A stretch of 64,000 bases of DNA from an uncultured Planctomycetia bacterium (lineage in GTDB: Bacteria; Omnitrophota; Gorgyraeia; 1-14-0-20-64-10), in assembly GCA_964597545.1 (NCBI GenBank), contig CAZQXN010000008.1, forward strand, positions 733 through 64,732, read 5' to 3'. Shown here in pieces: positions 11,142 to 64,000 of the stretch (the stretch's first letter is position 1; every line of letters starts with the position of its first letter). Position numbers and translations under genes: made by a program. Under the pieces are notes generated by a model. It was not told where the DNA came from, did not search any database, and worked only from the letters and a program-made list of their open reading frames with translations.

Positions 11142-12497
11142 ATGTCTCAAACAACCGTTCCCACTGTAGCCCTCATTGGCCGGCCCAACGTGGGAAAATC
11201 TGCCCTCTTCAATCGGCTCCTGAGGCGCCGCCAGGCCCTTGTGGATGCCACCCCCGGGCTTACCCGGGACCGCCTTTACGGCGAGGTGCAGTGGCGGGGC
11301 AAGCACTTTCGGATCATCGATACCGGGGGCTTAAACTTCTCTAAGGCCGAGGCGATCTCCGAAGGGATTGCCGGCCAGGTGATCAAGGCGGTGGAGGAGG
11401 CGGATCTGTGCCTGCTGATCTGCGATGGCAAATCAGGTCCTCTGCCCCTGGATCGCGAAGTGGCCGATTGGGCTCGTCGATGGGGAAAGCCTGTGCTGGT
11501 GGTGGTCAATAAGATCGACAACGACAAGACCTTGGCTGGTATCTATGAGTTTTCTGCGTTGGGGCTGGGGGATCCTCTCGCCATCTCCTCCCTGCACGGC
11601 ATTCGGATTGGAGAGCTGCTGGATGAGATCCTCCTGCAATTCAAAGACGGAGAAGCTCCATCCCAAGAGGTATCATCCCAGCACGCCCCGTCCACTGTTC
11701 AGAAAGAAGGATCCCTGCGGGTGGCGATCGTGGGGCGGCCCAACGTCGGTAAATCTTCTCTGCTCAACCGCCTCCTGAATGAAGATAGGGTTCTGGTGGA
11801 TGCTGTTCCAGGGACCACGCGGGATCCGGTCGAGACCCTCTTGGATTACCGCCAACAGCGGTATGCCTTGATTGATACCGCCGGCATCCGTTCCAGACGG
11901 CACGTGAACAGCGCAATGGATGCGGTGGCGCGGTTGAAGGCCCAGCGGATGATCCGCTCCGCGGATGTCTGCTTAGGTGTGCTGGAGGCCAGCCGCGGTC
12001 TCATCAAGGATGATCTGAAACTCTTGGATTTGGTGATTACCTCCGGAAGGCCCCTCTGCTTGGCCCTCAACAAGTGGGATCTGTTGCCTCAGGAGGTTTC
12101 CCTTGAGGGGGTGGCTACCGAGATCTATCGGCGAGCCCCCTTCCTGCGTTTTGCCTCGATTATTGCCACCTCAGCTGCGACCGGTTTTCAAGTGCTGGGG
12201 GCTTTAGAAGCGTCAAAGGCGGCAGCAGACGAGGGGCGCCGGAAGATCACCACAGCACAAGCCCGGCATCTGCTGGAGGTGGTTCGAAAAGATCCTTCCG
12301 CTCCGGTTGGGGTTCGTAACGCCCACTTTATCCGGTTTTCACAGGCTTCGACCGCGCCCCCCGTGTTTCACCTCCTGGTTCGGGTGAAGCGTTCTTTTCG
12401 GGCGTCGGATGTCATGTTTCTAGAGAAGGTTTTTCGCAGGGAGCTGGGTTTTCAAGGTACACCCATTCGGCTGCATCTTTTGGTGAAGCGGCGATGA
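11142..12497 (+). CDS. der: ribosome-associated GTPase Der/EngA (tandem GTPase domains)
   Basis: two G-domains: GRPNVGKSALFNRL and GRPNVGKSSLLNRL; KH-like C-terminus. Confidence 0.95.
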   Translation: MSQTTVPTVALIGRPNVGKSALFNRLLRRRQALVDATPGLTRDRLYGEVQWRGKHFRIIDTGGLNFSKAEAISEGIAGQVIKAVEEADLCLLICDGKSGPLPLDREVADWARRWGKPVLVVVNKIDNDKTLAGIYEFSALGLGDPLAISSLHGIRIGELLDEILLQFKDGEAPSQEVSSQHAPSTVQKEGSLRVAIVGRPNVGKSSLLNRLLNEDRVLVDAVPGTTRDPVETLLDYRQQRYALIDTAGIRSRRHVNSAMDAVARLKAQRMIRSADVCLGVLEASRGLIKDDLKLLDLVITSGRPLCLALNKWDLLPQEVSLEGVATEIYRRAPFLRFASIIATSAATGFQVLGALEASKAAADEGRRKITTAQARHLLEVVRKDPSAPVGVRNAHFIRFSQASTAPPVFHLLVRVKRSFRASDVMFLEKVFRRELGFQGTPIRLHLLVKRR

Positions 12498-12699: not shown

Positions 12700-13317
12700 G
12701 TGATTATATTCGGTGTAATTTGTGGTGCTTTTTTGCTAGGTGCGATCCCAACCGGTTTGATCGTTACCCGTTTGACCCGGGGGGTGGATCTTCGAAAGCA
12801 CGGCAGCGGCAATGTGGGGGCCACCAACGTCTATCGAGTGGTCGGTAAGCTCCCCGGCATCTTTGTCTTGGCGGTGGATGTGGTCAAGGGTGTTGTGCCG
12901 GTGAAGTTCCTTGCTCCCGCCGCCATCGGCTGGGGGGCGCAGATTGCCCCTGAAACCCTCCCGCTCCTGCTGGGTGTAGCAGCGATTGCCGGCCACGTCT
13001 GGAATCCGTTCCTTGGTTTTAAAGGGGGCAAGGGGGTGGCAACCGCCTTGGGTGTTTTGTCTGCGCTGGATCTTCGAGTGGGGCTGGGTGTCTTGGTGGT
13101 TTGGGGCATCACTGCCTTCTGGAGCCGCTATGTCTCAGTGGCCTCCGTTGCAGCTGCTGTTGCTGCCCCCTTTCTGATGGCATTTTTAGCTCTTCCAACC
13201 ACCTGGGTCCTGGGTGGGGTAGGGGTGAGCTTGGTCATTATTGCCCGACACCGCCCCAATATCCTCCGCCTGCTCCACGGAGAAGAGAATCGTATCGGGA
13301 AACAACCCTCCTCGTAG
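12700..13317 (+). CDS. plsY: glycerol-3-phosphate acyltransferase PlsY
   Basis: GSGNVGATNVYRVVGK signature; multi-TM; GTG start. Confidence 0.9.
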   Translation: MIIFGVICGAFLLGAIPTGLIVTRLTRGVDLRKHGSGNVGATNVYRVVGKLPGIFVLAVDVVKGVVPVKFLAPAAIGWGAQIAPETLPLLLGVAAIAGHVWNPFLGFKGGKGVATALGVLSALDLRVGLGVLVVWGITAFWSRYVSVASVAAAVAAPFLMAFLALPTTWVLGGVGVSLVIIARHRPNILRLLHGEENRIGKQPSS

Positions 13318-13460
13318 CCCTATTTTGCCCCTTCTGCATTAAAATAACACAAAGTTAGTTATATACCAAACGGTAGGCGTTAATACAATACATAAAGTTA
13401 AATATTGTTGGAATAATTATGCAACTTAAAGCATTTTATAAAGTAGAGAGGTATAGCGCG

Positions 13461-14720
13461 ATGAGAAAACGATTCCATTACCGCGGTCGTGGCCTCCTCG
13501 GTCAGAAATTAGAGGGGGATATGACTGCCTCTGACACAGACGAGGTGGTGCGGCGCCTTCATGACGCCGGCTATGTGGTCACCGCTGTCTCCAGGGCAGC
13601 CGACCGAGATCGTTTTGCCCGGTGGCTGACGCAATTCGTCCCGCCTCAAGAGCGCGTGGTCCTGCTGGAGGCTTGGGCGATGTATCTGGAATCGGGGTTG
13701 CCCATCCAGACAGCCCTTCTTCGTTTGAGTACCACAACCCGCAATGTCGGTGTGGCCCAAACCATTCAGAGAATTGCGGAGTCCATCGACGAGGGGATGA
13801 CTCTCTCCGAGGCGCTTCGTAAAAACCGATTCCTCCCCCCTTCGTGGGTCAATACCGTTGAGATAGGAGAGAAGCAGGGTGATTTTGCAGGACCCCTGCG
13901 CTTGCTTCAAAGACACGAACAGCGCTTCCGCAGCATCAAGCAACAACTGGTCTCAATGCTCATGATGCCCGTGGTTTTGGTGCTGCTGGTTACCGTCTGG
14001 TTCTGGCTCTTTGTGACTCGCGTCATTCCCGTTCTTATCGATTTCATGAGTCAGTTGGGTACCACGGTACCCTTAAGCAAGCCGATCATCATCATCTCTC
14101 AGATCTTCTATTCCAATGCCCTCTGGATCTTCCTGGCGATGGCCTTAGGGGCAATCTTCTTTAAAATGACGAACCGCTCCGACGAGGAGATGGGGTTCTT
14201 CCAGAAGTGGATTCCTCCCTCGGTACCCTGGGTGGGGCCCGTGGTCTCCTCGATGCAGCTGATCGTCCTGGCCTCGGGCTTGCGCTTCCAGCTGGAGTCC
14301 GGGGTCACCCTGCGGGAGGCGGTCAGGGCCATGGCCCAGGGGATTCGCAATCGGGCTCTACGCCGTACGCTGGTCAGGGTCTATCGGAAGCTCCTCCGGG
14401 GGGCCACGGTGTCAGAGGCCTTCTCCTCCCTGTCGCTCATTCCGCCGATGTGGCATGCTCTCTTGGCAGCCGGCGAGGAGAGCGGCAAGATACCGCAGGT
14501 GTTGGAAGTCTTAGAGCGTGAGGCGCGGGCCGATCTGCTGGCCAGGGGTAAACGACTCACAGTTGCCATGCGCAGCTTTGTGGTCATGGCAGCCGGCATC
14601 ATGGTGGCAACGCAGGCCTCCCTCTTCTTTGCGCTGGTCTACTCCGGCGTGGAAACGGCGTTGCCTGCCATTACCCCGGAGACCCGCGTTGACATAACCT
14701 TTCTCATGCCGATCCAGTAA
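13461..14720 (+). CDS. GspF/PilC-family platform protein (type IV pilus/T2SS inner-membrane component), orphan
   Basis: two GspF-like repeats and 3 TM segments; N-terminus FHYRGRGLLGQKLEGDMTASDTDEVVRRLHDAGYVV matches the PilC N-terminal pattern; ATG 13461 after an extremely AT-rich 140-bp upstream region. Confidence 0.75.
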   Translation: MRKRFHYRGRGLLGQKLEGDMTASDTDEVVRRLHDAGYVVTAVSRAADRDRFARWLTQFVPPQERVVLLEAWAMYLESGLPIQTALLRLSTTTRNVGVAQTIQRIAESIDEGMTLSEALRKNRFLPPSWVNTVEIGEKQGDFAGPLRLLQRHEQRFRSIKQQLVSMLMMPVVLVLLVTVWFWLFVTRVIPVLIDFMSQLGTTVPLSKPIIIISQIFYSNALWIFLAMALGAIFFKMTNRSDEEMGFFQKWIPPSVPWVGPVVSSMQLIVLASGLRFQLESGVTLREAVRAMAQGIRNRALRRTLVRVYRKLLRGATVSEAFSSLSLIPPMWHALLAAGEESGKIPQVLEVLEREARADLLARGKRLTVAMRSFVVMAAGIMVATQASLFFALVYSGVETALPAITPETRVDITFLMPIQ

Positions 14721-14801: not shown

Positions 14802-15800
14802 ATGACTCATCGATGTCGCGTGACCATCCTGGGCGATGGGGGATGGGGCACTTGCTTGAGTGTTCATCTGGCTGCCTTAGGGCACCAGGTGACTCTGTGG
14901 GGTGTTTTCCCAGAACAGATCCGTCAGATTCAGTCCAAGCGGAAGAATGCCAAGTTTTTGCCTGGCGTACCGCTTCCGCCTGAACTTAAGCTGACCGCTG
15001 ATCTCTCTGAGGCCTGGAACCAAGCCGAAGTCATTGTTGTGGCGGTTCCTTCCCGTTACCTGCGTGCTGTGCTTCAGCGCTGCGGTGAGGGACCGTGGGC
15101 ACAGGCGGTGGTGGTCAACGTGGTTAAGGGGATTGAGCCGGACAGTCTTCTGCGCATGTCAGAGCTCATTCGGGAGATGGTTCCGGCGCAGAGGTTGGCG
15201 GTTCTTTCGGGCCCCTCCATCTCTTATGAGGTTGCCCGCGGGGTTCCGACGACCGTTGTGGCCGCCTCAGAGACCCAGGCATTGGCCGAGGAGGTGCAGA
15301 CCCTTTTTACCGCGGAGCACTTTCGGATCTACACAACGACCGATGTTATTGGTGTGGAGCTGGGAGGCGCACTCAAGAACGTGATTGCCATTGCCTGCGG
15401 CGTGGCCGATGGGCTTAAATTCGGCACCAACACCAAGGCGGCGCTCACCAGCAGAGGTCTGGTGGAGATGGCGCGGTTGGGGCAAGCGCTGGGAGCGGAT
15501 CCTAAGACCTTTTCGGGTTTAAGCGGCCTCGGGGATATGATCACCACCTGTTTTTCTTCGCACAGCAGAAATCGAGCTGTCGGAGAGCGTCTGGGGCGCG
15601 GAGAAAAGTTGGAGGCCATTGCTCAGGGCATGGAGCAGGTGGCCGAAGGGATTACCACCGCACAATCGGCGCATGCCTTGAGCCAACGGGCGGGCGTTGA
15701 GATGCCGATTGCCCAAGCGGTGTATCAGCTGCTGTACGAGAAGAAGCCTCCGCAGCAGGCCGTACGGGAGCTGATGCTTCGGGATCCCAAGCCGGAATAA
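14802..15800 (+). CDS. gpsA: NAD(P)H-dependent glycerol-3-phosphate dehydrogenase
   Basis: ILGDGGWGTCLSVHLA Rossmann N-terminus; GpsA family length and layout. Confidence 0.9.
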   Translation: MTHRCRVTILGDGGWGTCLSVHLAALGHQVTLWGVFPEQIRQIQSKRKNAKFLPGVPLPPELKLTADLSEAWNQAEVIVVAVPSRYLRAVLQRCGEGPWAQAVVVNVVKGIEPDSLLRMSELIREMVPAQRLAVLSGPSISYEVARGVPTTVVAASETQALAEEVQTLFTAEHFRIYTTTDVIGVELGGALKNVIAIACGVADGLKFGTNTKAALTSRGLVEMARLGQALGADPKTFSGLSGLGDMITTCFSSHSRNRAVGERLGRGEKLEAIAQGMEQVAEGITTAQSAHALSQRAGVEMPIAQAVYQLLYEKKPPQQAVRELMLRDPKPE

Positions 15801-15839: not shown

Positions 15840-16169
15840 ATGACAGAATCTGCGGTCCAGGAAAAAATCGAGGAAATGGTTCGGCGTATCGTCGATCAGT
15901 TTCATCCGGAGAAGATCATTCTATTCGGTTCCCATGCGCGGGGAGGTGCTGGTCCGGATAGCGATGTAGATTTGCTGGTGGTCATGCGCGTGGAAGGATC
16001 GCGGCGCAAGAAGGCCACGGAGATCGATTTGTCTCTATCCGATCGAAAGATACCCCTTGATCTCCTCCTCGTGACGCCGGAACAATTTGACCGCGAGCGA
16101 GAGATGGTTGGGACGGTTATCCGGCCGGCAGTGCACGAGGGAAAGGTGCTCTATGAGCGTGCCGCCTGA
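15840..16169 (+). CDS. minimal nucleotidyltransferase (MNT) antitoxin/toxin component
   Basis: IILFGSHARGGAGPDSDVDLLVV (GS...DxD nucleotidyltransferase motif); 109 aa; overlaps the HEPN gene. Confidence 0.8.
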   Translation: MTESAVQEKIEEMVRRIVDQFHPEKIILFGSHARGGAGPDSDVDLLVVMRVEGSRRKKATEIDLSLSDRKIPLDLLLVTPEQFDREREMVGTVIRPAVHEGKVLYERAA

Positions 16170-16569
16170 GATTCTCCGCGGGATCCGTCAGTGGATCGAA
16201 AGGGCGGAGGATGACCTCAGGAATGCCGAGCATACGCTGAGGCTTAAAGAAAATTGTCCGCTTTGGACCGTCTGCTTTCATGCCCAGCAGTGTGCGGAAA
16301 AGTATCTCAAGGGACTTCTTATTCTGCGGTCAATCGATTTTCCGAAAACGCATGATCTTGTTGTTCTGCTCAATCTTGCAGGGGGGCCTCAGGCTGTGGG
16401 AGTTGACCTGTTGGATGTGGAGCCGTTGAACCGGTATCCGGTGGAAGCCCGGTATCCCGGCGATTGGGATCCGGTTGATCGAGGGGAGGCCGAGCAGTCA
16501 GTGGGTATGGCCCGGAAAGTCCGCGAGGTGGTGCGGAGGCATTTCCCGGAGGCCGCCTTGAATGGATAA
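16153..16569 (+). CDS. HEPN-domain protein (partner of MNT)
   Basis: four-helix HEPN pattern; CFHAQQCAEKYLKGLL...THDL (Rx4-6H-like motif); start overlaps the MNT stop. Confidence 0.75.
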   Translation: MSVPPEILRGIRQWIERAEDDLRNAEHTLRLKENCPLWTVCFHAQQCAEKYLKGLLILRSIDFPKTHDLVVLLNLAGGPQAVGVDLLDVEPLNRYPVEARYPGDWDPVDRGEAEQSVGMARKVREVVRRHFPEAALNG

Positions 16570-16798
16570 GCGTCCGCTCCCATTTCCTGGTTTTGGGACT
16601 CTCAGGGAAGCATTTCAGGGAGGGCATCGGTGCGAAGGCGACTTGCCGGAGGCCGCCTACGGGAAAGCCATCAAGTACTGTTACGAGGATATGGAGGGCA
16701 AGCTCTGGATTACCAACGAGGAATACGCCAGCCAGGTGAATTTCTGTCCTTACTGCGGGCACAAGACAACAGTAGTGGTGGGACGTCACGATCTATGA
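16562..16798 (+). CDS. small Cys/His-rich protein (zinc-ribbon-like), unknown function
   Basis: 78 aa; HRCEGD, KYCYED, NFCPYCGHK; start overlaps the HEPN stop; stop overlaps the next start (ATGA). Confidence 0.45.
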   Translation: MDKRPLPFPGFGTLREAFQGGHRCEGDLPEAAYGKAIKYCYEDMEGKLWITNEEYASQVNFCPYCGHKTTVVVGRHDL

Positions 16799-17652
16799 TC
16801 ATCTTGCAACCGAATCAGTCAGAACAAAAAGCAAAACCCAAGACCCCCAAATCTTATATTGTTTTGGGTTGCATCGGTGGGGTCGTTTTAATGAATACAG
16901 TTGCGGGATTGGCTAGAGCCATTGGATTTTCCATTAAAGCACCTCCCCTGTCGCCTGATCAGGCATCGGCTTTTTCATCGTTTGTCGGAATTCTAGCAGC
17001 GGTTTCATTTATAGGTGGGTATTACTTGATTGCAAAAGTCGTCAAGCGGAGTCTGGCGATGGGGGTTATCGTACTGGCAGGGATTGGTTTTGTTGGGTTG
17101 TTATCGTATGCTGCGCAAGCAGGGACAAAGAGCCAAGTAGTCGGCTCTGGCCAAGCCGTTGCTATTACCCCATCGTTTGTAGAGCTTGATTCGAACATTG
17201 TTGATACAGATGAGTTTTCAATCTCGTTTCCTGCCAATCCCAGGAGAGCAGTTGTTACTCAAAAGGCTGGAGGCGAGAGCCTTCGTGTAGAAACCTATCA
17301 AGCAGGAGATGGCGTAGGTATGTACGCATTCTCCTACGGGCGGTTAAGCAGTGTTTTGAAAGGGGGTTCGCAGCAGAAAGAGTTTGTAAGGGATCTCTTC
17401 AAGGGTTTGCTCTCAACAGCAAAAAATGCTCAGACTCATACAGAGCATCAATCCGACCGGATGCCTTTCGACCTGTCGTATCTTTATACGAGTGACTTTC
17501 ATGGCGATACCTTAGCTCACATGGGAATGCTATTTCTTGTGGATGACAAAGCGTACATAAAGATTACCCTTGTCTATCCAGCGAGTCGTGTAGACGAAGC
17601 TGCGGAGAAATACACCCGGTTTTTAAACACACTCCAATTGAAGAAAAGGTGA
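16795..17652 (+). CDS. 3-TM membrane protein with ~170-aa soluble C-terminal domain, unknown function (low GC)
   Basis: ATG 16795 (the ORF-track 16630 start is an out-of-context N-terminal extension); TM helices YIVLGCIGGVVLMNTVAGLA, FSSFVGILAAVSFIGGYYLIA, LAMGVIVLAGIGFVGLL; GC visibly lower than the flanks. Confidence 0.6.
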   Translation: MIILQPNQSEQKAKPKTPKSYIVLGCIGGVVLMNTVAGLARAIGFSIKAPPLSPDQASAFSSFVGILAAVSFIGGYYLIAKVVKRSLAMGVIVLAGIGFVGLLSYAAQAGTKSQVVGSGQAVAITPSFVELDSNIVDTDEFSISFPANPRRAVVTQKAGGESLRVETYQAGDGVGMYAFSYGRLSSVLKGGSQQKEFVRDLFKGLLSTAKNAQTHTEHQSDRMPFDLSYLYTSDFHGDTLAHMGMLFLVDDKAYIKITLVYPASRVDEAAEKYTRFLNTLQLKKR

Positions 17653-17921
17653 TGCGACAATTAAAACTGGAAGACATGGTGCCGGGTATGAAATTGGGTT
17701 CCAACGAGAGTCTTGCTACCCTGATAGAGGATTTGACGCGGCCGCCCGGCGTCGGAAACGATTTTGAAATTCGAAGATCTAGGGCGAAGGCCGTCTTTGA
17801 ATACATGCACTCGCTTCAGGTGGCGAAAAATAGCGAGCAGGTACGGTATGCGACATTGGTCATAGCCGGGGCGACTGTGTTCAACGCTATCGTTCTTACC
17901 ATCACACTATTTTTTCTGTGA
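17649..17921 (+). CDS. small tail-anchored protein, unknown function (low GC)
   Basis: 90 aa; C-terminal TM ATLVIAGATVFNAIVLTITLFFL; ATGA overlap with the upstream gene. Confidence 0.5.
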   Translation: MMRQLKLEDMVPGMKLGSNESLATLIEDLTRPPGVGNDFEIRRSRAKAVFEYMHSLQVAKNSEQVRYATLVIAGATVFNAIVLTITLFFL

Positions 17922-18040
17922 TTCTTGGTTCAGTTTTTGGCAGGGGGGATAGGAATTGCTACGGTGGTCTATATTGGCCTACGGTGTTATCCGTTATAGT
18001 TTTTGTCGGGAAATCGGTTTTCGTAAGTTCTTATACCACA

Positions 18041-18117
18041 CGGGGCGTAGCGTAGTTTGGCAGCGCGCTTGCATGGGGTGCAAGAGGTCGGCAGTTCGAA
18101 TCTGCCCGCCCCGACCA
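18041..18117 (+). tRNA. tRNA-Pro (anticodon GGG)
   Basis: acceptor stem CGGGGCG/CGCCCCG, anticodon stem CTTGC/GCAAG with loop ATGGGGT, T-loop GGTTCGAATCC-like (CAGTTCGAATCTG), 3' ACCA encoded. Confidence 0.85.
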
Positions 18118-18138
18118 CTTAGCTAGAAGATAGGCAGA

Positions 18139-18191
18139 TGTCATCCTCCGGCTTGACCGGGGGATCGATTCCCGCTTTCGCGGGAATGACA
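18139..18191. repeat. palindromic repeat family B (GTCATCC-hairpin-GGATCGATYCCCGCTTTCGCGGGRATGACA)
   Basis: tgtcatcctccggcttgaccgggggatcgattcccgctttcgcgggaatgaca; near-identical copy at 38169-38220 and a half copy at 59695-59724. Confidence 0.75.
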
Positions 18192-18215
18192 AACCAGTAG
18201 AAACGACAGGAAAAA

Positions 18216-19517
18216 ATGATGGAAAAGATCAATGTTGGATTGCTGGGCGTAGGCACTGTTGGTTTTGGGGTCGCCAAGACCTTGCTCTCCCGGCGAGCCT
18301 TTTTGGCCCGCCAGGCGGGAGTGGAGCTGGTCTTGAAGCGCGTCTGCGATAAGGACCGCTCCAAGGCGCGGCTGCTTAGGATCGACAAGCCTCTTTTTAC
18401 CACCGATGCCAAGAAGATGCTGGAGGATCCGCAGATCCACGTGGTCGTCGAGCTGATTGGTGGAGTTCATCCGGCAAAGGAGATGGTCTTGAAGGCGATC
18501 GCCAACGGCAAATCGGTGGTGACTGCCAACAAGGCGCTCCTGGCGCATTCTGGGCCGGAGCTCTTCCATGCGGCCGACAAGGCCGGGGTGGATCTGTACT
18601 TTGAGACAGCGGTTGCCGGCGGCATACCGATCATCAAGTCCCTCAGGGAGGGCTTGGTGGGCAATGACATTGAGGCGATCTACGGGATCCTCAACGGCAC
18701 CACCAACTTTATTCTCTCGGAGATGTCCCGCGGGGAGGGGCGCTCTTTTGAGGCAGCCCTCAAAGAGGCGCAGGCCAGGGGTTATGCCGAGCAGAATCCC
18801 GCCTTGGATTTAAAGGGCGGAGATACCGCCCACAAGCTGGCGGTCTTGGCCTTTCTTGCTTTCGGAAAGGCAGTGCCCCAGAGCGCCCTTTACGTTGAGG
18901 GGATCGAAGGAATCACCGCCAACGATATCCGGTATGCCTCTGAATTCGGTTATGCCATTAAGCTTTTGGGGATTGCCAAGCGGATTGGCGAGCAGCTGGA
19001 GGTTCGGGTACATCCAACCCTGCTGCCCAAGTCGCACTCCCTCTCCGGTGTCAGTGGTGTGCACAACGCCGTCTCCGTGAAAGGGGACTTAGTCGGAGAG
19101 CTGGTGTTGTATGGCCAAGGGGCCGGGCGGTGGGCATCGACCAGTGCGATACTGTCGGATCTGGTGGATGTTGCCCGCAACCTCTCCTGTTCGACCCCTC
19201 AGCGGGTGCCGCCCCCGGGCCGCAATCGCCGGGTGCGTCGAATTCGGAAGATCGGAGAGCTGGAGGGGCGCTACTACTTCCGCTTCTCTGTGATTGACCG
19301 ACCCGGGGTGTTGGCCCGGATCGCTCAGATCTTGGGCAAACACAAAATCTCTATTACCAGCGTTCTGCAGAAGGACCGCCGCCACGAACAGATGGTGCCG
19401 GTGGTGATGATGACCCATGATGCCCGGGAGCGCAATGTCGAGCGCGCGCTCAAACAGATCGACAGCCTCTCGGTGGTGCGTCGCAAATCCGTCTCTATTC
19501 GGATGGAGCGAGGATGA
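18216..19517 (+). CDS. hom: homoserine dehydrogenase (with C-terminal ACT domain)
   Basis: [14 protein letters not shown]-binding N-terminus; ACT-like C-terminus; thr operon context. Confidence 0.9.
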
Positions 19518-33506: not shown

Positions 33507-34291
33507 GAGACCCTAAAGCTCACCTGCTCTTGGCCCTTGATGTTGGCAACACCAACACCACCTTAGGGCTTTTTCGTGGCAAGCGTTTGATTGCGCACGG
33601 GAAGATGGCGACCGCCGAAATCTCCATGCGCAGACAACTCAAACGAGAGGTTCAGCGATTGCAGCGCTCCTGCCGCGGCCCCATTACAGCGGTAATCTTC
33701 TCAAGCGTGGTGCCCAAAGCAACGGCTCCGCTGAAGCGCTCCTTAAAGGCCCTTCTGCGCCTACGCCCCTGGGTGCTGGGCGAGAATGTATCGGCCCCGG
33801 TCCTCAATCGGTACCGGATTCCTTCTCAGGTAGGGCAGGATCGTCTTTGCAATGCAGCGGCTGCTTTTGAGCGGCATGGGGGGCCGGTGATTGTGGTTGA
33901 TTTTGGAACTGCGGTGACCATCGATCTGGTATCGGCGCGCCGTGAGTATCTAGGAGGTGTTATTGTCCCTGGCATGGAGATGGCTTTGGCGGCTTTAACG
34001 GACAAAGCAGCCCTTCTTCCACGCATTAAGCTTAAGCCCCCCCGGCGTCTTTTAGGGCGGGATACGGTAAGCTCAATCCAATCTGGTATCTTCTTTGGTT
34101 ACAGTGGGTTATGTGACGGGATCATTCAACGGCTTAAAGGTGGGGTTGCCAAATCAGCCAAGGTGATAGGAACCGGCGGCAATGCCGCCCTCATTGCCCC
34201 CTATTGCACTTCTGTTCATATCGTGAACCAGCACCTAACCCTTCAGGGGCTGGAACTTACTTACCGCCAGCTTACCCTAAAAAAGAGTTGA
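33503..34291 (+). CDS. coaX: type III pantothenate kinase
   Basis: LLALDVGNTNTTLGLF N-terminus, IVVDFGTAVTIDLV, GTGG motif. Confidence 0.9.
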   Translation: MRDPKAHLLLALDVGNTNTTLGLFRGKRLIAHGKMATAEISMRRQLKREVQRLQRSCRGPITAVIFSSVVPKATAPLKRSLKALLRLRPWVLGENVSAPVLNRYRIPSQVGQDRLCNAAAAFERHGGPVIVVDFGTAVTIDLVSARREYLGGVIVPGMEMALAALTDKAALLPRIKLKPPRRLLGRDTVSSIQSGIFFGYSGLCDGIIQRLKGGVAKSAKVIGTGGNAALIAPYCTSVHIVNQHLTLQGLELTYRQLTLKKS

Positions 34292-34316
34292 CATTCCCCA
34301 GAAATCCTGTATCATA
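34289..34316 (+). promoter_or_regulatory. sigma-70-type promoter for groES-groEL (TTGACA-16/17-TATCAT)
   Basis: ttgacattccccagaaatcctgtatcat directly upstream of the CIRCE-like element. Confidence 0.55.
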
Positions 34317-34325
34317 GCCCTGTTT

Positions 34326-34352
34326 TTAGCACTCTGAGGGAACGGCTGCTAA
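34326..34352 (+). promoter_or_regulatory. CIRCE-like HrcA operator (TTAGCACTC-N9-GGCTGCTAA)
   Basis: ttagcactc tgagggaac ggctgctaa; left half is perfect CIRCE, right half has 2 mismatches to GAGTGCTAA; upstream of groES. Confidence 0.65.
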
Positions 34353-34471
34353 TTTTCCGCATTTTTGGTTCGCCTCGAGTCATATTCCGCTGAAGTGACA
34401 GCATCTCTGCTGATTTGCCCGGCGGACAGCTTTTCGCACACATCTGTTCTATTGCACAACAGGAGGGTTCA

Positions 34472-34762
34472 ATGGCCATTCAGCCGCTGGGTGATCGGAT
34501 TCTGATTCAACTATTAGAGGAAGAGGAGAAATCCCCGGGTGGGATTATCCTCCCGGATACCGCCAAGGAAAAGCCCCAAGAGGGCAAGGTGGTTGCGGTG
34601 GGCAAGGGCAAGCTGTTGGAAGACGGCACCCTCAGGCCCTTGGAGGTCAAGGTAGGAGATACGATCCTCTTTGCCAAGTATTCCGGCACAGAGGTCGCCC
34701 ACCAGGACGAGGACTTTATGATTCTTCGTGAAGAGGAGATCTTGGCGGTTCGCAACAAGTAA
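34472..34762 (+). CDS. groES: co-chaperonin GroES (copy 1)
   Basis: [13 protein letters not shown]...[22 protein letters not shown]...[14 protein letters not shown]; AGGAGGG RBS. Confidence 0.95.
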
Positions 34763-34780
34763 GCCAAGACAAACGCTTAA

Positions 34781-36439
<1,659 letters not shown>

Positions 36440-38168: not shown

Positions 38169-38220
38169 CGTCATCCTCGTGACAACGAGGATCAGATCCC
38201 CGCTTTCGCGGGGATGACAT
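38169..38220. repeat. palindromic repeat family B copy
   Basis: cgtcatcctcgtgacaacgaggatcagatccccgctttcgcggggatgacat; intergenic between the guaB3-like gene and guaA. Confidence 0.75.
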
Positions 38221-59694: not shown

Positions 59695-59724
59695 TGTCAT
59701 CCCCGCGGAAGCGGGGATCGTTCC
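59695..59724. repeat. half copy of palindromic repeat family B (minus orientation) abutting IR-R
   Basis: reverse complement gaacgatccccgcttccgcggggatgacaca matches the right half of the 18.1/38.2 kb element. Confidence 0.6.
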
Positions 59725-60466: not shown

Positions 60467-61708
60467 ATGTCAGCGACAGATACAACAACATTAAGGAACG
60501 GAAGAACTCAAGCTGCCATATACGCTACCTCTGATTGTCCGACGGATTCCAAGGAGGTAACTCACAGGACACGCCTTGAAGAGCTCAACCTCAACTGGAG
60601 CGAGAAAGATCTTCCAGAGAAGGAGCGCACTAAACATGTTCATAGGTTGCACCCTTATCTCGGGAAGTTTATCCCACAACTTGTGGAGACTTTTCTAAGA
60701 AAGTATTTTTCGCCAGGCCAAACAGTACTTGATCCCTTTGTGGGATCGGGGACAACGGTTGTGCAAGCTAATGAGTTAGGCATAAACTCCATCGGGTACG
60801 ATGTATCTGCATTCAATAGCCTGCTGTGTCGAGCCAAGACAGCAAGATATGATCCCAATAAAGTGCAACAAGAGGTACTCGACATTCTTGAGAAAGTGCG
60901 GGTGGAAACACAAGAAGATGGACAAGAGAATTTATGGAGAAATCCAAGAAACTCAAAGATTCCCAAAACAGACAATGCGTATCTCAAGCAGTGGTTTGCT
61001 CCTCAATCGCTTCGAGAGCTTTTGACATATCGGTCTTTTATTGATCAGGGGGATTATAGATACAAGGATTTGCTCAAGATCATACTTTCCCGCTCTGCTC
61101 GGTCAGCTCGACTTACTACCCATTTTGATTTGGATTTCCCTAGACAACCACAAACGGAGTCCTACTGGTGTTATAAACATTCCAGAGAATGTACCCCCAC
61201 CACACAGGCTTTTGCATTTCTAAGACGCTATAGCTTAGATTCTCTAGAGCGGATCAGAGACTTTGCTGTTCTTCGCACGAACTCCCATGTTTCCATTCGG
61301 CACGCAGATAGTCGGAGGGCTCACTTCCCGCCCATTGATGGTGTAGTTACCAGTCCTCCGTATGTGGGGTTGATCGATTATCACGAGCAACATGCTTATG
61401 CGTACCATCTATTGGGACTAAAAGACAAACGTAGCATGGAGATTGGGCCCGCGGCGAATGGGTCGAGCCAGAAGGCGAAAGATCAGTATCAGAAAGATAT
61501 TGGCGAAGTATTCAGCCATGCCGCCAAAGCTATGCCTTCCGGTGGGCGCATGATTGTTGTGGCAGGCGATCGAGCTAACCTATACGGAGAAATAGCCAAA
61601 CTAGCAAGCGTAGAGATTGAGACCGTTGTTCGGCGACATGTGAACCGGCGAACAGGTCGCCGAGCCAACGAGTTTTACGAATCGGTTTTCATCTGGCGAA
61701 AGAGATGA
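60467..61708 (+). CDS. DNA methyltransferase (N6-adenine/N4-cytosine class, SPPY motif)
   Basis: HPYLGKFIPQLVETFLRKYFSPGQTVLDPFVGSGTT (motif X/I, AdoMet binding) and TSPPYVGLIDY (motif IV); low GC; TATAAT box about 85 bp upstream. Confidence 0.75.
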   Translation: MSATDTTTLRNGRTQAAIYATSDCPTDSKEVTHRTRLEELNLNWSEKDLPEKERTKHVHRLHPYLGKFIPQLVETFLRKYFSPGQTVLDPFVGSGTTVVQANELGINSIGYDVSAFNSLLCRAKTARYDPNKVQQEVLDILEKVRVETQEDGQENLWRNPRNSKIPKTDNAYLKQWFAPQSLRELLTYRSFIDQGDYRYKDLLKIILSRSARSARLTTHFDLDFPRQPQTESYWCYKHSRECTPTTQAFAFLRRYSLDSLERIRDFAVLRTNSHVSIRHADSRRAHFPPIDGVVTSPPYVGLIDYHEQHAYAYHLLGLKDKRSMEIGPAANGSSQKAKDQYQKDIGEVFSHAAKAMPSGGRMIVVAGDRANLYGEIAKLASVEIETVVRRHVNRRTGRRANEFYESVFIWRKR

Positions 61709-63081
61709 AAAGAGCCAAGCCTCAAGAGATAAAATCCGCCATCCAAAGCGTTATCAAGATGTTGATGGATGGAGTTATGGATAAGGTGCTGAACAAAGAT
61801 CCCTTTATTGAAGAGGAGCACCACGCGAAGAAACCGCTCTACGCAGCTCTGGTGCCTGATGAGGTTTTTAAGGGGTCGCATTTTGAAAGAAGGTTCGTAA
61901 CTCCATTTGGACGCGCTTGGGAGGCTCTGGCAATCGTAGTGGCAGAAAAGGCGCTGGGTATTGGGGCTGAGAATCATAGCATCGAGGGCACAGTCAAGTC
62001 AGAACGCTTGAGGCGGATCAGCCAGGTGCTTAACCGGTTAGAACACCCAGAAAGAGGCAGGGAAAGATTCCGGCCTCATTGGACAGAGGAACTCAAATTT
62101 GTTTTAGCGGGTGGCGGCAAGAACATACCTGTAAAGGTCATTTGTGATGTTTATGCTGAGGATAGGACGAACAACAAGAAGTATGCTTTTGAGCTAAAAG
62201 CTCCTCTCCCCAACAGCGACCAGACGAAAGTGAGCAAGGAGAAAATCCTCAAGCTCTATTGCATGGAGCCCAAACAAGTGGATGGAGCGTACTATGCGCT
62301 TCCCTATAACCCATACGGAAAGAAAGAGAACTACAGTTGGAGTTTTCCTGCTCGTTGGTTTGATATGCAGCGCGATGAGGTTGTTCTTATAGGAAACGAG
62401 TTTTGGGACAAAATTGGCGGACCTGGTACATACCAGTCATTTATAGATGCCATCAATGAGATAGGGCCTGAGTATAAGGAGAGAATTTACCGAGAATTCC
62501 TGGGTATTGAGCCACCAGCCGAGAGTGTACAAGCAGGCGTTATTTCATCCGCCGAAGAAATAGGTGCTACAGCCGCTCAAGCGCCGGAACCGGAAATAAA
62601 GATTGTTTCCAGGAAGGAAGCCGAACCTTTCGTGACTCACCTACCTGTTTATTCGCTCGAAGTTGCTGCTGGGGGCTATGGTAGAGCCAAGGAAACTGAA
62701 GAGAGGGGGTGGGTAAGGGTAAATGGCCGGAAGCTGGCCGAGGGTATGTTTGTGGCTCAAGTCATCGGGCATTCAATGGAACCCAAAATTCCCGATAGAA
62801 GTTACTGTCTCTTCAGGTGGCACAAAGGGGGTACAAGGCAAGGACAGATTATCCTAGCTCGGCATAGCGGTTTGGTTGATTCTGAGACTGGAGGTAAATT
62901 TACTGTCAAGAGGTATGAGAGCGAAAAGGTTCATAACTCGGACGACACTTGGCATCATAGCAGGATCGTTCTGAAACCGATTAATCCGTCGTATCGCCCC
63001 ATCGAAGTTACTCCTTCCGAATCCGAGGAAGTGAGCATCATTGCTGAGTTTGTTGGTCTTCTGTATGAAGGGAATGTTTAG
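61705..63081 (+). CDS. fusion protein: PD-(D/E)xK restriction-endonuclease-like N-terminal domain plus LexA-type S24 autopeptidase C-terminal domain
   Basis: N-domain ICDVYAED...YAFELK (D...ExK) and paralogous to the next gene; C-domain has the LexA cleavage-site-like VAAGGY, catalytic Ser in GHSMEP, GQIILAR, catalytic Lys in FTVKRY, and tail IVLKPINPSYRPIEV; ATGA overlap with the methyltransferase. Confidence 0.7.
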   Translation: MKRAKPQEIKSAIQSVIKMLMDGVMDKVLNKDPFIEEEHHAKKPLYAALVPDEVFKGSHFERRFVTPFGRAWEALAIVVAEKALGIGAENHSIEGTVKSERLRRISQVLNRLEHPERGRERFRPHWTEELKFVLAGGGKNIPVKVICDVYAEDRTNNKKYAFELKAPLPNSDQTKVSKEKILKLYCMEPKQVDGAYYALPYNPYGKKENYSWSFPARWFDMQRDEVVLIGNEFWDKIGGPGTYQSFIDAINEIGPEYKERIYREFLGIEPPAESVQAGVISSAEEIGATAAQAPEPEIKIVSRKEAEPFVTHLPVYSLEVAAGGYGRAKETEERGWVRVNGRKLAEGMFVAQVIGHSMEPKIPDRSYCLFRWHKGGTRQGQIILARHSGLVDSETGGKFTVKRYESEKVHNSDDTWHHSRIVLKPINPSYRPIEVTPSESEEVSIIAEFVGLLYEGNV

Positions 63082-63122
63082 CTGATGGATGGTCGACTGA
63101 CTAACGCTAAAGAGGTGTTTGT

Positions 63123-63791
63123 TTGAGAAGAGCTTTCATGAAGATGACAAGCGAAAAACGCTCGAGAATCGAAAAAATCATCGAGCGATTCGTTAGCAAT
63201 GTCCACAGGCTATCGGAACTTAACGCGGATAAGATCGTCGTTAACCCTTTCCTGGCGGCTGCGTTGGGACTTAGAGAAAAACCGGAGATACTCGACTTCT
63301 TTCTTACGCAAAGGATGCAACGAGGGATCGTAACTTCGTTTGGTACTACGATACAAAAAATTGCGAAGACGCTCGATTCCGAAGCGAAAGAGGAAGATGT
63401 AGACCTCGTGTTCATAAAACGCAGCAAGAAATATTATGTCCAACTCAAAAGTGGCCCCGAGGGATTTACTCGGCCCGCGCTTAGGAAAACAAAAGCGACG
63501 TTTCGTAAGCTGAAGAGGCGTGATCCGTCTTGCGTTACGGTTATAGGTTTCTCATACGGCACCAAAGAACAGCTTTCTCCTATATGGGGACGTGAAGCGT
63601 ACAAGAGTGCCGATAGAGTATTGGTTGGAAAAAAGTTCTGGGATTTCTTTGCGGGCAAAGGATTTTATGATGAGCTAATAAAGGTCTTTCAAATGAGTAG
63701 ACCAGCAACTGGTAGGCGGAGGCAATCCAAGAGATCTACATTCAGGCAAATCCACAGACAGCTATATCGACGTTTACTACCATTGTTCTAA
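63123..63791 (+). CDS. PD-(D/E)xK restriction-endonuclease-like protein, paralog of the N-domain of the preceding gene
   Basis: VTSFGTTIQKIAKTL ~ VTPFGRAWEALAIVV; EDVDLVFIKRSKKYYVQLK ~ ICDVYAEDRTNNKKYAFELK; KKFWDFFAGKGFYDELIKVF ~ NEFWDKIGGPGTYQSFIDAI; TTG start with AGAGGTG RBS. Confidence 0.6.
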   Translation: MRRAFMKMTSEKRSRIEKIIERFVSNVHRLSELNADKIVVNPFLAAALGLREKPEILDFFLTQRMQRGIVTSFGTTIQKIAKTLDSEAKEEDVDLVFIKRSKKYYVQLKSGPEGFTRPALRKTKATFRKLKRRDPSCVTVIGFSYGTKEQLSPIWGREAYKSADRVLVGKKFWDFFAGKGFYDELIKVFQMSRPATGRRRQSKRSTFRQIHRQLYRRLLPLF

Positions 63792-63834
63792 GGAATGAAG
63801 AAGGCGGTCCGCAATGAGTCGTCTCCGGTTCCAC

Positions 63835-64000
63835 GGGAGCTCTATATGAAACAGGATAATTCGCGCGGCGAAACAGGACACAGCATCCTCCCAGTTCTTA
63901 TTACCTTGTCGGTTTTGAGCATCATCATTGCGCCGTTTTGCATGCTTATCAAATACCAAGATGTGGCCGGCGAAATCGCTTTGCTTTCCAAAAGCATGAT
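63835..64000 (+). CDS. membrane protein, N-terminal fragment (continues beyond the window)
   Basis: MKQDNSRGETGHSILPVLITLSVLSIIIAPFCMLIKYQDVAGEIALLSKSM, open to the window edge. Confidence 0.35.

Follow-up and report, generated by a model that had tools for sequence, protein, structure and literature searches.

A five-gene accessory block between gpsA and tRNA-Pro(GGG) in an uncultured Omnitrophota bacterium

The five genes and their insertion site

We analysed a 64,000-nt stretch of contig CAZQXN010000008.1 (assembly GCA_964597545.1) from an uncultured bacterium of the Omnitrophota; "the window" means this whole stretch, not the five-gene block that is our subject, and coordinates are those of the window. 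Open reading frame (ORF) calling places five genes on the + strand between gpsA and tRNA-Pro(GGG): a minimal nucleotidyltransferase gene (MNT), a HEPN gene, and three more that we call ZnR78, TM285 and TA90. Successive genes overlap by 17, 8, 4 and then 4 (or 1) nt, and a Shine-Dalgarno-like purine run lies 5' of each of the five starts. The first-pass annotation, made from the sequence, had described five overlapping co-directional genes directly upstream of this tRNA, and both parts of the description held: the tRNA, called by ARAGORN and Rfam, starts 119 nt past the TA90 stop. The features of the locus are as follows.

14802-15800, + strand: gpsA, a 332-aa ORF, the conserved left flank; Pfam NAD_Gly3P_dh domains are recorded for an identical protein
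15840-16169, + strand: MNT, 109 aa
16153-16569, + strand: HEPN, 138 aa
16562-16798, + strand: ZnR78, 78 aa
16795-17652, + strand: TM285, 285 aa (17650-17652 is the stop codon)
17649 (GTG) or 17652 (ATG) to 17921, + strand: TA90, a 90-aa ORF
17935-18040, + strand: presumed promoter or leader of the tRNA, a conserved region 5' of tRNA-Pro
18041-18117, + strand: tRNA-Pro(GGG), intact (ARAGORN; Rfam RF00005, 59.6 bits), the anchor of the hotspot
18216-19517, + strand: hom (homoserine dehydrogenase), the conserved right flank, with thrC next (ORF call and synteny)

Promoter and terminator scans of the block returned no more sites than in shuffled sequences, the Rfam scan of the block matched the tRNA alone, and none of the five genes has a paralogue elsewhere within the window. 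Since no internal terminator was found beyond chance, the five genes are probably now read as one transcript. Their base composition is uneven. MNT, HEPN and ZnR78 have a GC content of 0.54-0.57, near native, and TM285 has 0.463 as compared with 0.571 for the window, with a GC content at third codon positions (GC3) of 0.44; GC3 is 0.66-0.73 in the flanking core genes. TA90 stands at 0.495 (GC3 0.57) and the spacer between TA90 and the tRNA at 0.429. Only 1.2-1.4% of equal-sized segments are as GC-poor. The low GC of the block thus comes mainly from TM285 and the spacer, and of the two genes previously described as visibly AT-richer than the genome, TM285 is so and TA90 only mildly.

A gpsA scan of species-representative genomes gave 18 loci, most of which carry the label Candidatus Omnitrophota; the highest identity is 60%. 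Of the 16 distant Omnitrophota loci in which a tRNA was called, 10 have tRNA-Pro(GGG) within ~10-100 nt after gpsA, and hom-thrC usually comes next where the contig is long enough; in five other Omnitrophota loci, unrelated genes occupying 1.2-5.9 kb separate gpsA from the tRNA. Because distant Omnitrophota have gpsA directly followed by tRNA-Pro-hom-thrC, the whole 2.2-kb block from gpsA to tRNA-Pro is an insertion into an ancestrally tight junction, and the spot is variable across the phylum. Closer relatives of the locus, all uncultured or metagenomic, were found by homologue look-ups with ZnR78 and by a metagenome scan, and concern the same gpsA-to-hom interval (loci and proteins are designated L and P, respectively). 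Across them the content between gpsA and tRNA-Pro/hom varies and the flanks are conserved, as is expected of a tRNA-targeted integrative island, and positions 17935-18040 of the window are 83-92% identical to the regions upstream of tRNA-Pro in L032, L037, L029 and L025. We favour, with moderate confidence, the reading that the block is a two-layer islet between gpsA and tRNA-Pro(GGG), built in at least two steps, and not one functional system.

Directly 3' of tRNA-Pro, at 18125-18197 (core 18168-18190), lies the palindrome ATTCCCGCTTTCGCGGGAATGAC, which resembles a repetitive extragenic palindromic (REP) element and is presumably the "family-B repeat" noted earlier at this place. Further copies are found at 38196-38218 and 59696-59718, so that the window has three copies, whereas 100 shuffles gave none; the Rfam search of the palindrome gave a sub-threshold FtrB match alone.

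Recurrent MNT-HEPN-ZnR cassettes in related loci

The MNT protein of the window matches Pfam NTP_transf_2 (PF01909, E 4.8e-13) and PF18765 (E 4.6e-10), and its residues 30-44, GSHARGGAGPDSDVD, form the GSx10DxD nucleotidyltransferase motif as defined for MNT proteins (PMC11586414). Against the NCBIfam MntA model it scores 33.8, below the cut-off of 60. HEPN matches PF05168 (E 2.8e-24) and not the HepT-like PF01934, and has no NCBIfam match. The motif RX4HXY, whose Tyr is AMPylated in HepT toxins (PMC11586414), is absent, the regular expression R....H.Y having returned nothing in the HEPN of the window and nine homologues; the last helix of the window's HEPN carries R124-x5-H130, with Phe-Pro next, and the R-x5-H recurs in all six of the closest (type A/B) homologues compared. 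The pair had been called canonical, and an overlapping MNT-HEPN pair it is, but canonical is too strong a word for it. Because HEPN lacks RX4HXY and is of the PF05168 rather than the PF01934 type, and because MNT falls below the MntA cut-off, the pair fits a class-II-type HEPN-MNT system, that is, PF05168 with PF01909 and no canonical RX4HXY. The study that distinguishes class I from class II did not establish a biochemical mechanism for class II (PMC11586414). Judged by its sequence, HEPN is a putative RNase toxin and MNT its putative antitoxin, and, by analogy, neutralisation may proceed through nucleotidylylation. Across ten trios of MNT, HEPN and ZnR, MNT and HEPN identities (24%-90%) co-vary with a Spearman coefficient of 0.82, as expected for partners.

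The same trio occurs in ~14 related loci (L025, with two divergent copies, L027, L028, L030-L033, L036, L039-L041 and L045), and TM285 and TA90 are absent from all of them. Partial copies of tRNA-Pro usually flank the trio. The order in L031, for example, is tRNA nt 1-40, MNT-HEPN-ZnR, tRNA nt 1-39, and then a pair encoding a DUF4258 protein and an MqsA-like zinc-finger protein; the copy of nt 1-39 begins inside the last codons of ZnR. Like fragments are present in L025, L027, L032, L036 and L040-L042, and in these relatives it is 5' copies of tRNA-Pro, spanning nt 1-39/40 or 24-50, that separate the toxin-antitoxin (TA) cassettes from one another. The 40-nt fragments are found with E ~1e-12. 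Their breaks lie either after nt 39/40, where the anticodon loop ends on its 3' side, or near nt 46-50, and 3' of the break there is often a shared leader, GTGGTCAAAATTGCAAC..., followed by direct repeats TGGTGCnnnnTGGTGC or GGTGACAATAAGGTGACAAT. The arrays of TA cassettes are located as follows.

L025: 5029-11610
L027: array present
L031: 4225-5897
L032: 930-4330
L036: 2390-4090
L040-L042: arrays present

The cassettes encode MNT/HEPN pairs of three types, VapBC, the DUF4258 and MqsA-like pair, and MazE-like proteins. A Pfam census of 89 ORFs from the intervals of 16 loci, with 25 of 29 families listed, counted 15 MNT, 13 HEPN (PF05168), one HepT-like, three PIN, three VapB and three DUF4258 proteins, together with HicB-like and MazE-like proteins and one DDE transposase; no recombinase is among those 25 of 29 families. 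The fragment borders resemble the scars that successive site-specific integrations would leave if the incoming DNA brought a new 5' half of the tRNA each time. Such arrays, with 5' tRNA halves standing between the TA cassettes, lie on the 5' side of the tRNA, an unusual position, and belong to a phylum that is uncultured and little studied; they are a convenient case in which to follow the build-up of very small accessory cassettes.

Two further kinds of tRNA-Pro remnant were seen in the relatives. Some 5' pseudo-fragments carry GC-rich hairpin inserts of 40-80 nt in the D-arm region, which look like small elements of the REP or miniature inverted-repeat transposable element (MITE) kind in decaying scars:

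L025, 6226-6319: hairpin-bearing pseudo-fragment
L025, 9930-10047: hairpin-bearing pseudo-fragment
L024, 5513-5600: hairpin-bearing pseudo-fragment
L040, 92-185: hairpin-bearing pseudo-fragment

In L025, moreover, the 3' end of tRNA-Pro recurs as a 16-nt copy at 11576-11591, ~70 nt downstream of the intact tRNA; this copy looks like a separate, conventional 3'-side integration scar.

The third gene of the trio, ZnR78, encodes a His/Cys4 set formed by His22, Cys24, Cys40, Cys62 and Cys65. It has 31 close homologues, 52-81% identical, in which the core NEEYASQVNFCPYCG is conserved; throughout the family, phage homologues included, the four Cys residues are invariant and His22 is nearly so. Zinc-ribbon models match it below threshold only. 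The three genes that follow the pair had been described in the first-pass annotation as of unknown function, and ZnR78, TM285 and TA90 indeed match no family in Pfam, NCBIfam, PHROGs or PADLOC; the ZnR family as a whole has no PHROG family and is absent from INPHARED phages and PLSDB plasmids. A search of the PDB with the ZnR profile gave only summed weak matches to designed WD40 repeats, which we rejected as an artefact. Beyond the Omnitrophota loci, relatives of ZnR78 were found in uncultivated phage genomes only. These distant homologues, of which seven lie on IMG/VR contigs, are 60-75 aa long and 38-71% identical over the core (L046-L094, e.g. L049 4965-5180, L056 150-338 and L050 2376-2600), and their neighbours on metagenome contigs match PHROG portal, major head protein, DNA polymerase, MazG, methyltransferase and primase families. 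ZnR78 represents, then, an uncharacterised zinc-ribbon family common to Omnitrophota chromosomes and uncultivated phages. The fetched flanks of the phage genes hold no HEPN/MNT, tRNA-Pro fragment or recombinase; with no tRNA-Pro-like sequence or recombinase adjoining it there, a role of ZnR as a phage recombination factor was rejected.

In the Omnitrophota loci ZnR follows three divergent types of HEPN/MNT and is 63-85% identical whichever type precedes it, with a correlation to MNT/HEPN identities of only 0.27-0.32 (rho, ten trios). In L042, and probably also in L044, a VapB-VapC pair precedes it, and in L024 MNT without HEPN. What adjoins ZnR most constantly is the 5' end of tRNA-Pro: ZnR ORFs normally end inside tRNA-Pro or its fragments, and in many of the proteins the last residues are RGVA, translated from CGGGGCGTAGCGTAG, with which the tRNA begins. 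We conclude that ZnR78 is most probably a small zinc-binding protein in its own right, under strong constraint, and does not serve the toxin as specificity partner; it may have a generic regulatory or adaptor role.

These same comparisons bear on the possibility that the HEPN/MNT system has in ZnR78 a genuine third component, acting for example as its regulator, sensor or adaptor, in which case the phage homologues would interfere with it. ZnR comes after HEPN in ~14 of 17 related occurrences, among them three HEPN/MNT types that are 24-40% identical, and it often overlaps HEPN by 8 nt or lies 7-10 nt from it; the trio is present twice in L025 and in L027, and homologues are indeed encoded by phages. 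However, ZnR has not diversified together with HEPN/MNT (rho ~0.3, compared with 0.82 between MNT and HEPN), it is also found after VapBC or after MNT alone, it keeps a tighter association with the 5' end of tRNA-Pro, and its phage homologues have no HEPN/MNT neighbour. The loci are, in addition, related, and the counts are not independent. We regard a third component as unlikely.

A bolder proposal starts from the arrays and takes the 5' side of tRNA-Pro(GGG) to be an active, integron-like platform that collects cassettes without an integrase in cis, recombination at the anticodon loop capturing short TA and membrane-protein cassettes, each of which would arrive with a 5' tRNA half of its own. 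ZnR78, as the gene constantly joined to that half and with phage genes as its only other relatives, would then not be passive cargo but part of the machinery of capture, targeting or regulation, or else a phage-derived factor used by phages and hosts alike. We give this proposal little credence.

The low-GC genes and the slot between ZnR and the tRNA

The two genes downstream of ZnR78 were described in the first-pass annotation as a protein with three transmembrane (TM) helices and a soluble domain and as a tail-anchored protein, and both descriptions agree with what we found. TM285 has hydrophobic cores at residues 22-40, 62-80 and 86-104, followed by a C-terminal part of 181 aa; TA90 has a single C-terminal hydrophobic helix, with its maximum at residues 69-87. 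Because the N terminus of TM285 is rich in Lys and Arg (net +3) and residues 81-85 form a KVVKR loop, the positive-inside rule makes the N terminus and loop 2 cytoplasmic, and the predicted topology has the N terminus inside and the C-terminal 181 residues outside. The homologues of the C-terminal domain, ~170 aa long and consisting of a signal peptide and the domain, agree with a periplasmic location. The following parts are distinguished.

16778-16812, no strand: ZnR78/TM285 junction, a possible decayed tRNA-Pro 5' scar that is not statistically supported
16795-17106, + strand: N-terminal anchor of TM285, three TM helices, N terminus predicted inside
17107-17652, + strand: C-terminal domain of TM285, predicted periplasmic, with a predicted Mog1/PsbP/DcrB-like fold; GC 0.457

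An AlphaFold model of full-length TM285 built from 3 sequences was poor (pLDDT 47.9) and was replaced by a model of residues 120-285 from a 24-sequence alignment (pLDDT 95.1, pTM 0.89). The modelled domain is an alpha-beta-alpha sandwich and matches solved members of the Mog1/PsbP/DcrB-like superfamily. Foldseek matched it in the PDB to EagT6 (E 2.5e-4), PA94, MTC28, PsbP, DcrB and LpqN with TM-scores of 0.5-0.58, the E values of the Mog1/PsbP-like matches running from 2.5e-4 to 1.6e-2. Its best viral structural matches are phage lipoproteins in BFVD (E 1.4e-3 to 8e-3, TMq 0.41-0.59). At the level of sequence, TM285 has no Pfam match, and among the 24 relatives DcrB (E 0.0031) and PsbP_2 (E 0.051) were matched by one member each; the profile of the domain found nothing significant in the PDB.

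TM285 is rare. Word-indexed searches found 2 homologues among 5.8 billion proteins, and an exhaustive hidden Markov model (HMM) search of 1.84 billion representatives gave 28 matches at E<=1e-3, mostly to the C-terminal domain alone. Only 3 of the 28 are near full length, and none of these three is next to HEPN/MNT. The first, in L002 (79% identity), has the same ZnR-to-TM285 junction as the window, with only ZnR visible on the short contig, and the same step in GC at that junction, from 0.55 to 0.457. The second, in L001 (48% identity, contig GC 43%), has upstream of it a PhdYeFM-family antitoxin gene and a RelE/ParE-like ORF and, further upstream, a CopG-family gene and a BrnT-like ORF, both of the -like ORFs being assigned by eye. 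The third, P0003 (45% identity), is encoded in the region 4842-6978 of L095 (contig ERZ23498405 scaffold_111, contig GC 36%) and overlaps the gene of a 397-aa TIR-like protein (PADLOC PDLC00733, E 3.7e-7) with a C-terminal zinc ribbon; a 269-aa two-TM protein with a weak PsbP match and an IS481 transposase are encoded upstream, and BrnT and CopG downstream. L095 may thus be a defence-type neighbourhood for the TM285 family, a rare membrane-anchored, periplasmic family of PsbP/DcrB fold that travels with TA and defence-type neighbours.

In other members of the family the C-terminal domain has a trypsin-like protease or Sel1 repeats as fusion partner, or stands after a zinc ribbon and TM helices, and in P0017 the three-helix anchor module alone is fused to ankyrin repeats. 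Because of these varied fusions the C-terminal domain appears to behave as a modular extracytoplasmic binding domain. TM285 would be a binding or scaffold protein of the envelope, such as mobile elements carry as "morons", and it possibly interferes with phage adsorption or injection.

TA90 found only itself in the database search (P0061, 100%). It is missing from L002, where the stop codon of TM285 is followed directly by the sequence that lies 3' of TA90 in the window; comparison of the two shows a GTGAT microhomology at both borders of TA90. The annotated frame scores best for codon usage, and a frame of 90 codons would be open by chance with a probability of 0.008. Given this score and this probability, that TA90 is a spurious ORF was not established. 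TA90 is probably a real gene, encoding a young, dispensable, orphan tail-anchored peptide.

Two observations concern the junction of ZnR78 and TM285. The TM285 frame is open for 55 codons 5' of its ATG (window 16630-17652), out of frame through ZnR78, and the same upstream open frame is present in L002 and L034, so that the gene after ZnR comes out too long in mechanical ORF lists. Second, the L002 junction aligns by eye with nt 1-36 of the tRNA at ~60% identity, including CTTGCA and with a 3-nt gap; we do not claim a decayed scar at 16778-16812.

Whether the five genes form one defence or abortive-infection system, in which HEPN/MNT senses or executes and TM285, with TA90, acts as membrane effector, turns on these distributions. 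The first-pass annotation had suggested a composite defence or abortive-infection locus with a membrane-acting effector coupled to the HEPN/MNT module. A composite accessory block with HEPN/MNT, the last part of it foreign, is what we find; the single system and the coupled effector are not supported. Co-directional genes, start/stop overlaps and the lack of any terminator-like site between genes beyond chance speak for one system, as do the overlap of P0003 with a TIR-like protein ending in a zinc ribbon and the TA pairs that adjoin P0002. MNT, furthermore, matches the PADLOC-DB 2.0 candidate PDC-S09 (E 3e-12) and, weakly, cyclases of cyclic oligonucleotide-based antiphage signalling systems (CBASS). 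Yet these are the only matches that PADLOC gave in a check for known defence systems: HEPN, ZnR78, TM285 and TA90 have none at E<=1. TM285 and TA90 are missing from all of the ~14 other MNT-HEPN-ZnR loci, TM285 homologues lie away from HEPN/MNT in L001 and L095, and TA90 is lacking in L002; of the three added genes, it is only ZnR78 whose homologues co-occur with HEPN/MNT. The composition step indicates later acquisition, and the soluble domain, predicted to be periplasmic and of a PsbP/DcrB-type binding fold, has no pore-forming, lytic or enzymatic signature. A single system is, in our judgement, very improbable.

The two-layer reading is informed also by what other loci hold between ZnR and the tRNA. 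The slot is empty, ZnR abutting the tRNA or a fragment of it, in L025 (both copies), L030, L031 and L042. It holds multi-TM proteins of 144-193 aa in L029, L032/L041, L034 and L037, a lipoprotein-like protein of 146 aa in L036 and an ankyrin protein with a signal peptide in L044 (5248-6024). Including TM285, seven unrelated families occupy the slot, all membrane or exported proteins, and in three independent cases (the window, L029 and L032) an ATGA joins their start codon to the ZnR stop. The enrichment fits envelope "moron" cargo placed by an attachment site, or else a functional tie of ZnR to membrane proteins. The latter, in the form that ZnR78 serves the membrane or exported protein that follows it as a cytoplasmic partner, as a regulator or as a helper in insertion, ZnR78-TM285(-TA90) being a functional unit that HEPN/MNT only stabilises, could draw on these occupants and their ATGA overlaps, on the distant C-terminal-domain members P0020 and P0022, which are fusions of zinc ribbon, TM helices and domain, and on the zinc ribbon that ends the gene upstream of P0003, but it is hard to credit when ZnR so often abuts the tRNA with no membrane gene (the empty slots above), when P0020 and P0022 have zinc ribbons of a generic kind, unlike that of ZnR78, and when membrane "morons" beside attachment sites are common without a partner.

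Away from the block, positions 61001-64000 have a GC content of 0.46-0.49, as low as TM285, and smaller dips occur at 13001-14000 (0.536) and 34001-35000 (0.518); these may be other acquired segments.

A proposed layered islet and its likeness to known systems

In the two-layer reading, the first layer (15840-16798) comprises the class-II-type HEPN/MNT pair and ZnR78 and would have been inserted as a cassette 5' of tRNA-Pro. MNT would neutralise the HEPN RNase, the pair probably forming an addiction or stress module, perhaps an abortive-infection module, and ZnR78 would be the constant, tRNA-proximal gene of the cassette. Such cassettes may have arisen by repeated site-specific integration, each incoming DNA bringing a new 5' tRNA half. 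The second layer (16795-17921) would be low-GC cargo dropped later between ZnR78 and the tRNA, in which the three-helix anchor of TM285 is predicted to display a domain of Mog1/PsbP/DcrB fold in the periplasm, and TA90 is probably a dispensable orphan.

Several points weigh against this reading. The related loci are phylogenetically non-independent metagenome fragments, and their ORFs were called mechanically. In the window, blastn-short (E<0.05) finds no tRNA-Pro fragment other than the tRNA itself, and direct repeats flanking the block are at chance level only; the borders of the islet in the window have been erased, or never were of the tRNA-fragment type, and the integration mechanism is therefore extrapolated from the relatives. 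No integrase was detected by phmmer in the 3442 ORFs of the window and 97 loci, in a search of low sensitivity with XerD and Hin sequences as queries. The start/stop overlaps across all five genes amount to coupled expression, with which some functional interplay is possible, and the TM285 family may yet have a role in defence, given the overlap of P0003 with a TIR-like protein.

An HEPN/MNT pair in a tRNA-linked variable spot is the ordinary part of this locus. Current views are not overturned by it; what it supplies are candidates, for a third partner of class-II HEPN/MNT systems and for envelope "moron" functions.

The window's pair shares with the type VII HepT/MntA (class I) system the order MNT then HEPN with a 17-nt overlap, the GSx10DxD of MNT and an R-x5-H in the last HEPN helix. 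It differs in that its HEPN, without RX4HXY, lacks the Tyr that MntA AMPylates in characterised HepT and belongs to PF05168, not PF01934, in that its MNT is below the MntA cut-off, and in the conserved third gene, ZnR78, that follows the pair in this lineage. The combination of PF05168 and PF01909 domains without the canonical motif is the one described for class II HEPN-MNT (PMC11586414).

Residues 120-285 of TM285 share their predicted fold with the Mog1/PsbP-like proteins (DcrB, LpqN, MTC28, PsbP/CyanoP, EagT6/DUF1795 and TplEi), and the predicted extracytoplasmic location with DcrB, LpqN, MTC28 and PsbP. Unlike these, TM285 is anchored by three TM helices, not by a lipobox or signal peptide, and it forms a rare family of its own that belongs by sequence to no curated family. 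Phage envelope lipoproteins and "morons" (in BFVD, entries named lipoprotein or host cell surface-exposed lipoprotein) are the best viral structural matches of its domain, and like a "moron" TM285 is cargo beside an attachment-type site; the similarity is, however, weak and structural only, and TM285 is chromosomal, with no recognisable prophage.

The arrays of the relatives recall, by analogy, those of integrons and superintegrons in their short, co-directional, promoter-poor and TA-rich cassettes separated by repeats. The repeats are 5' halves of tRNA-Pro where integrons have attC hairpins, and an integrase of IntI type was not found. Another parallel is offered by the tycheposon islands, in which successive integrations are separated by partial tRNAs and degenerate remnants (bioRxiv 10.1101/2020.12.28.424599). 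The units of the relatives differ in being only 1-2 kb long, in lying on the 5' side of the tRNA and carrying its 5' half (nt 1-39/40), and in that no integrase was found in the arrays, while the window is without a scar; what they share with tycheposon islands is a variable segment beside a tRNA and between core genes, with partial tRNA copies and decayed remnants.

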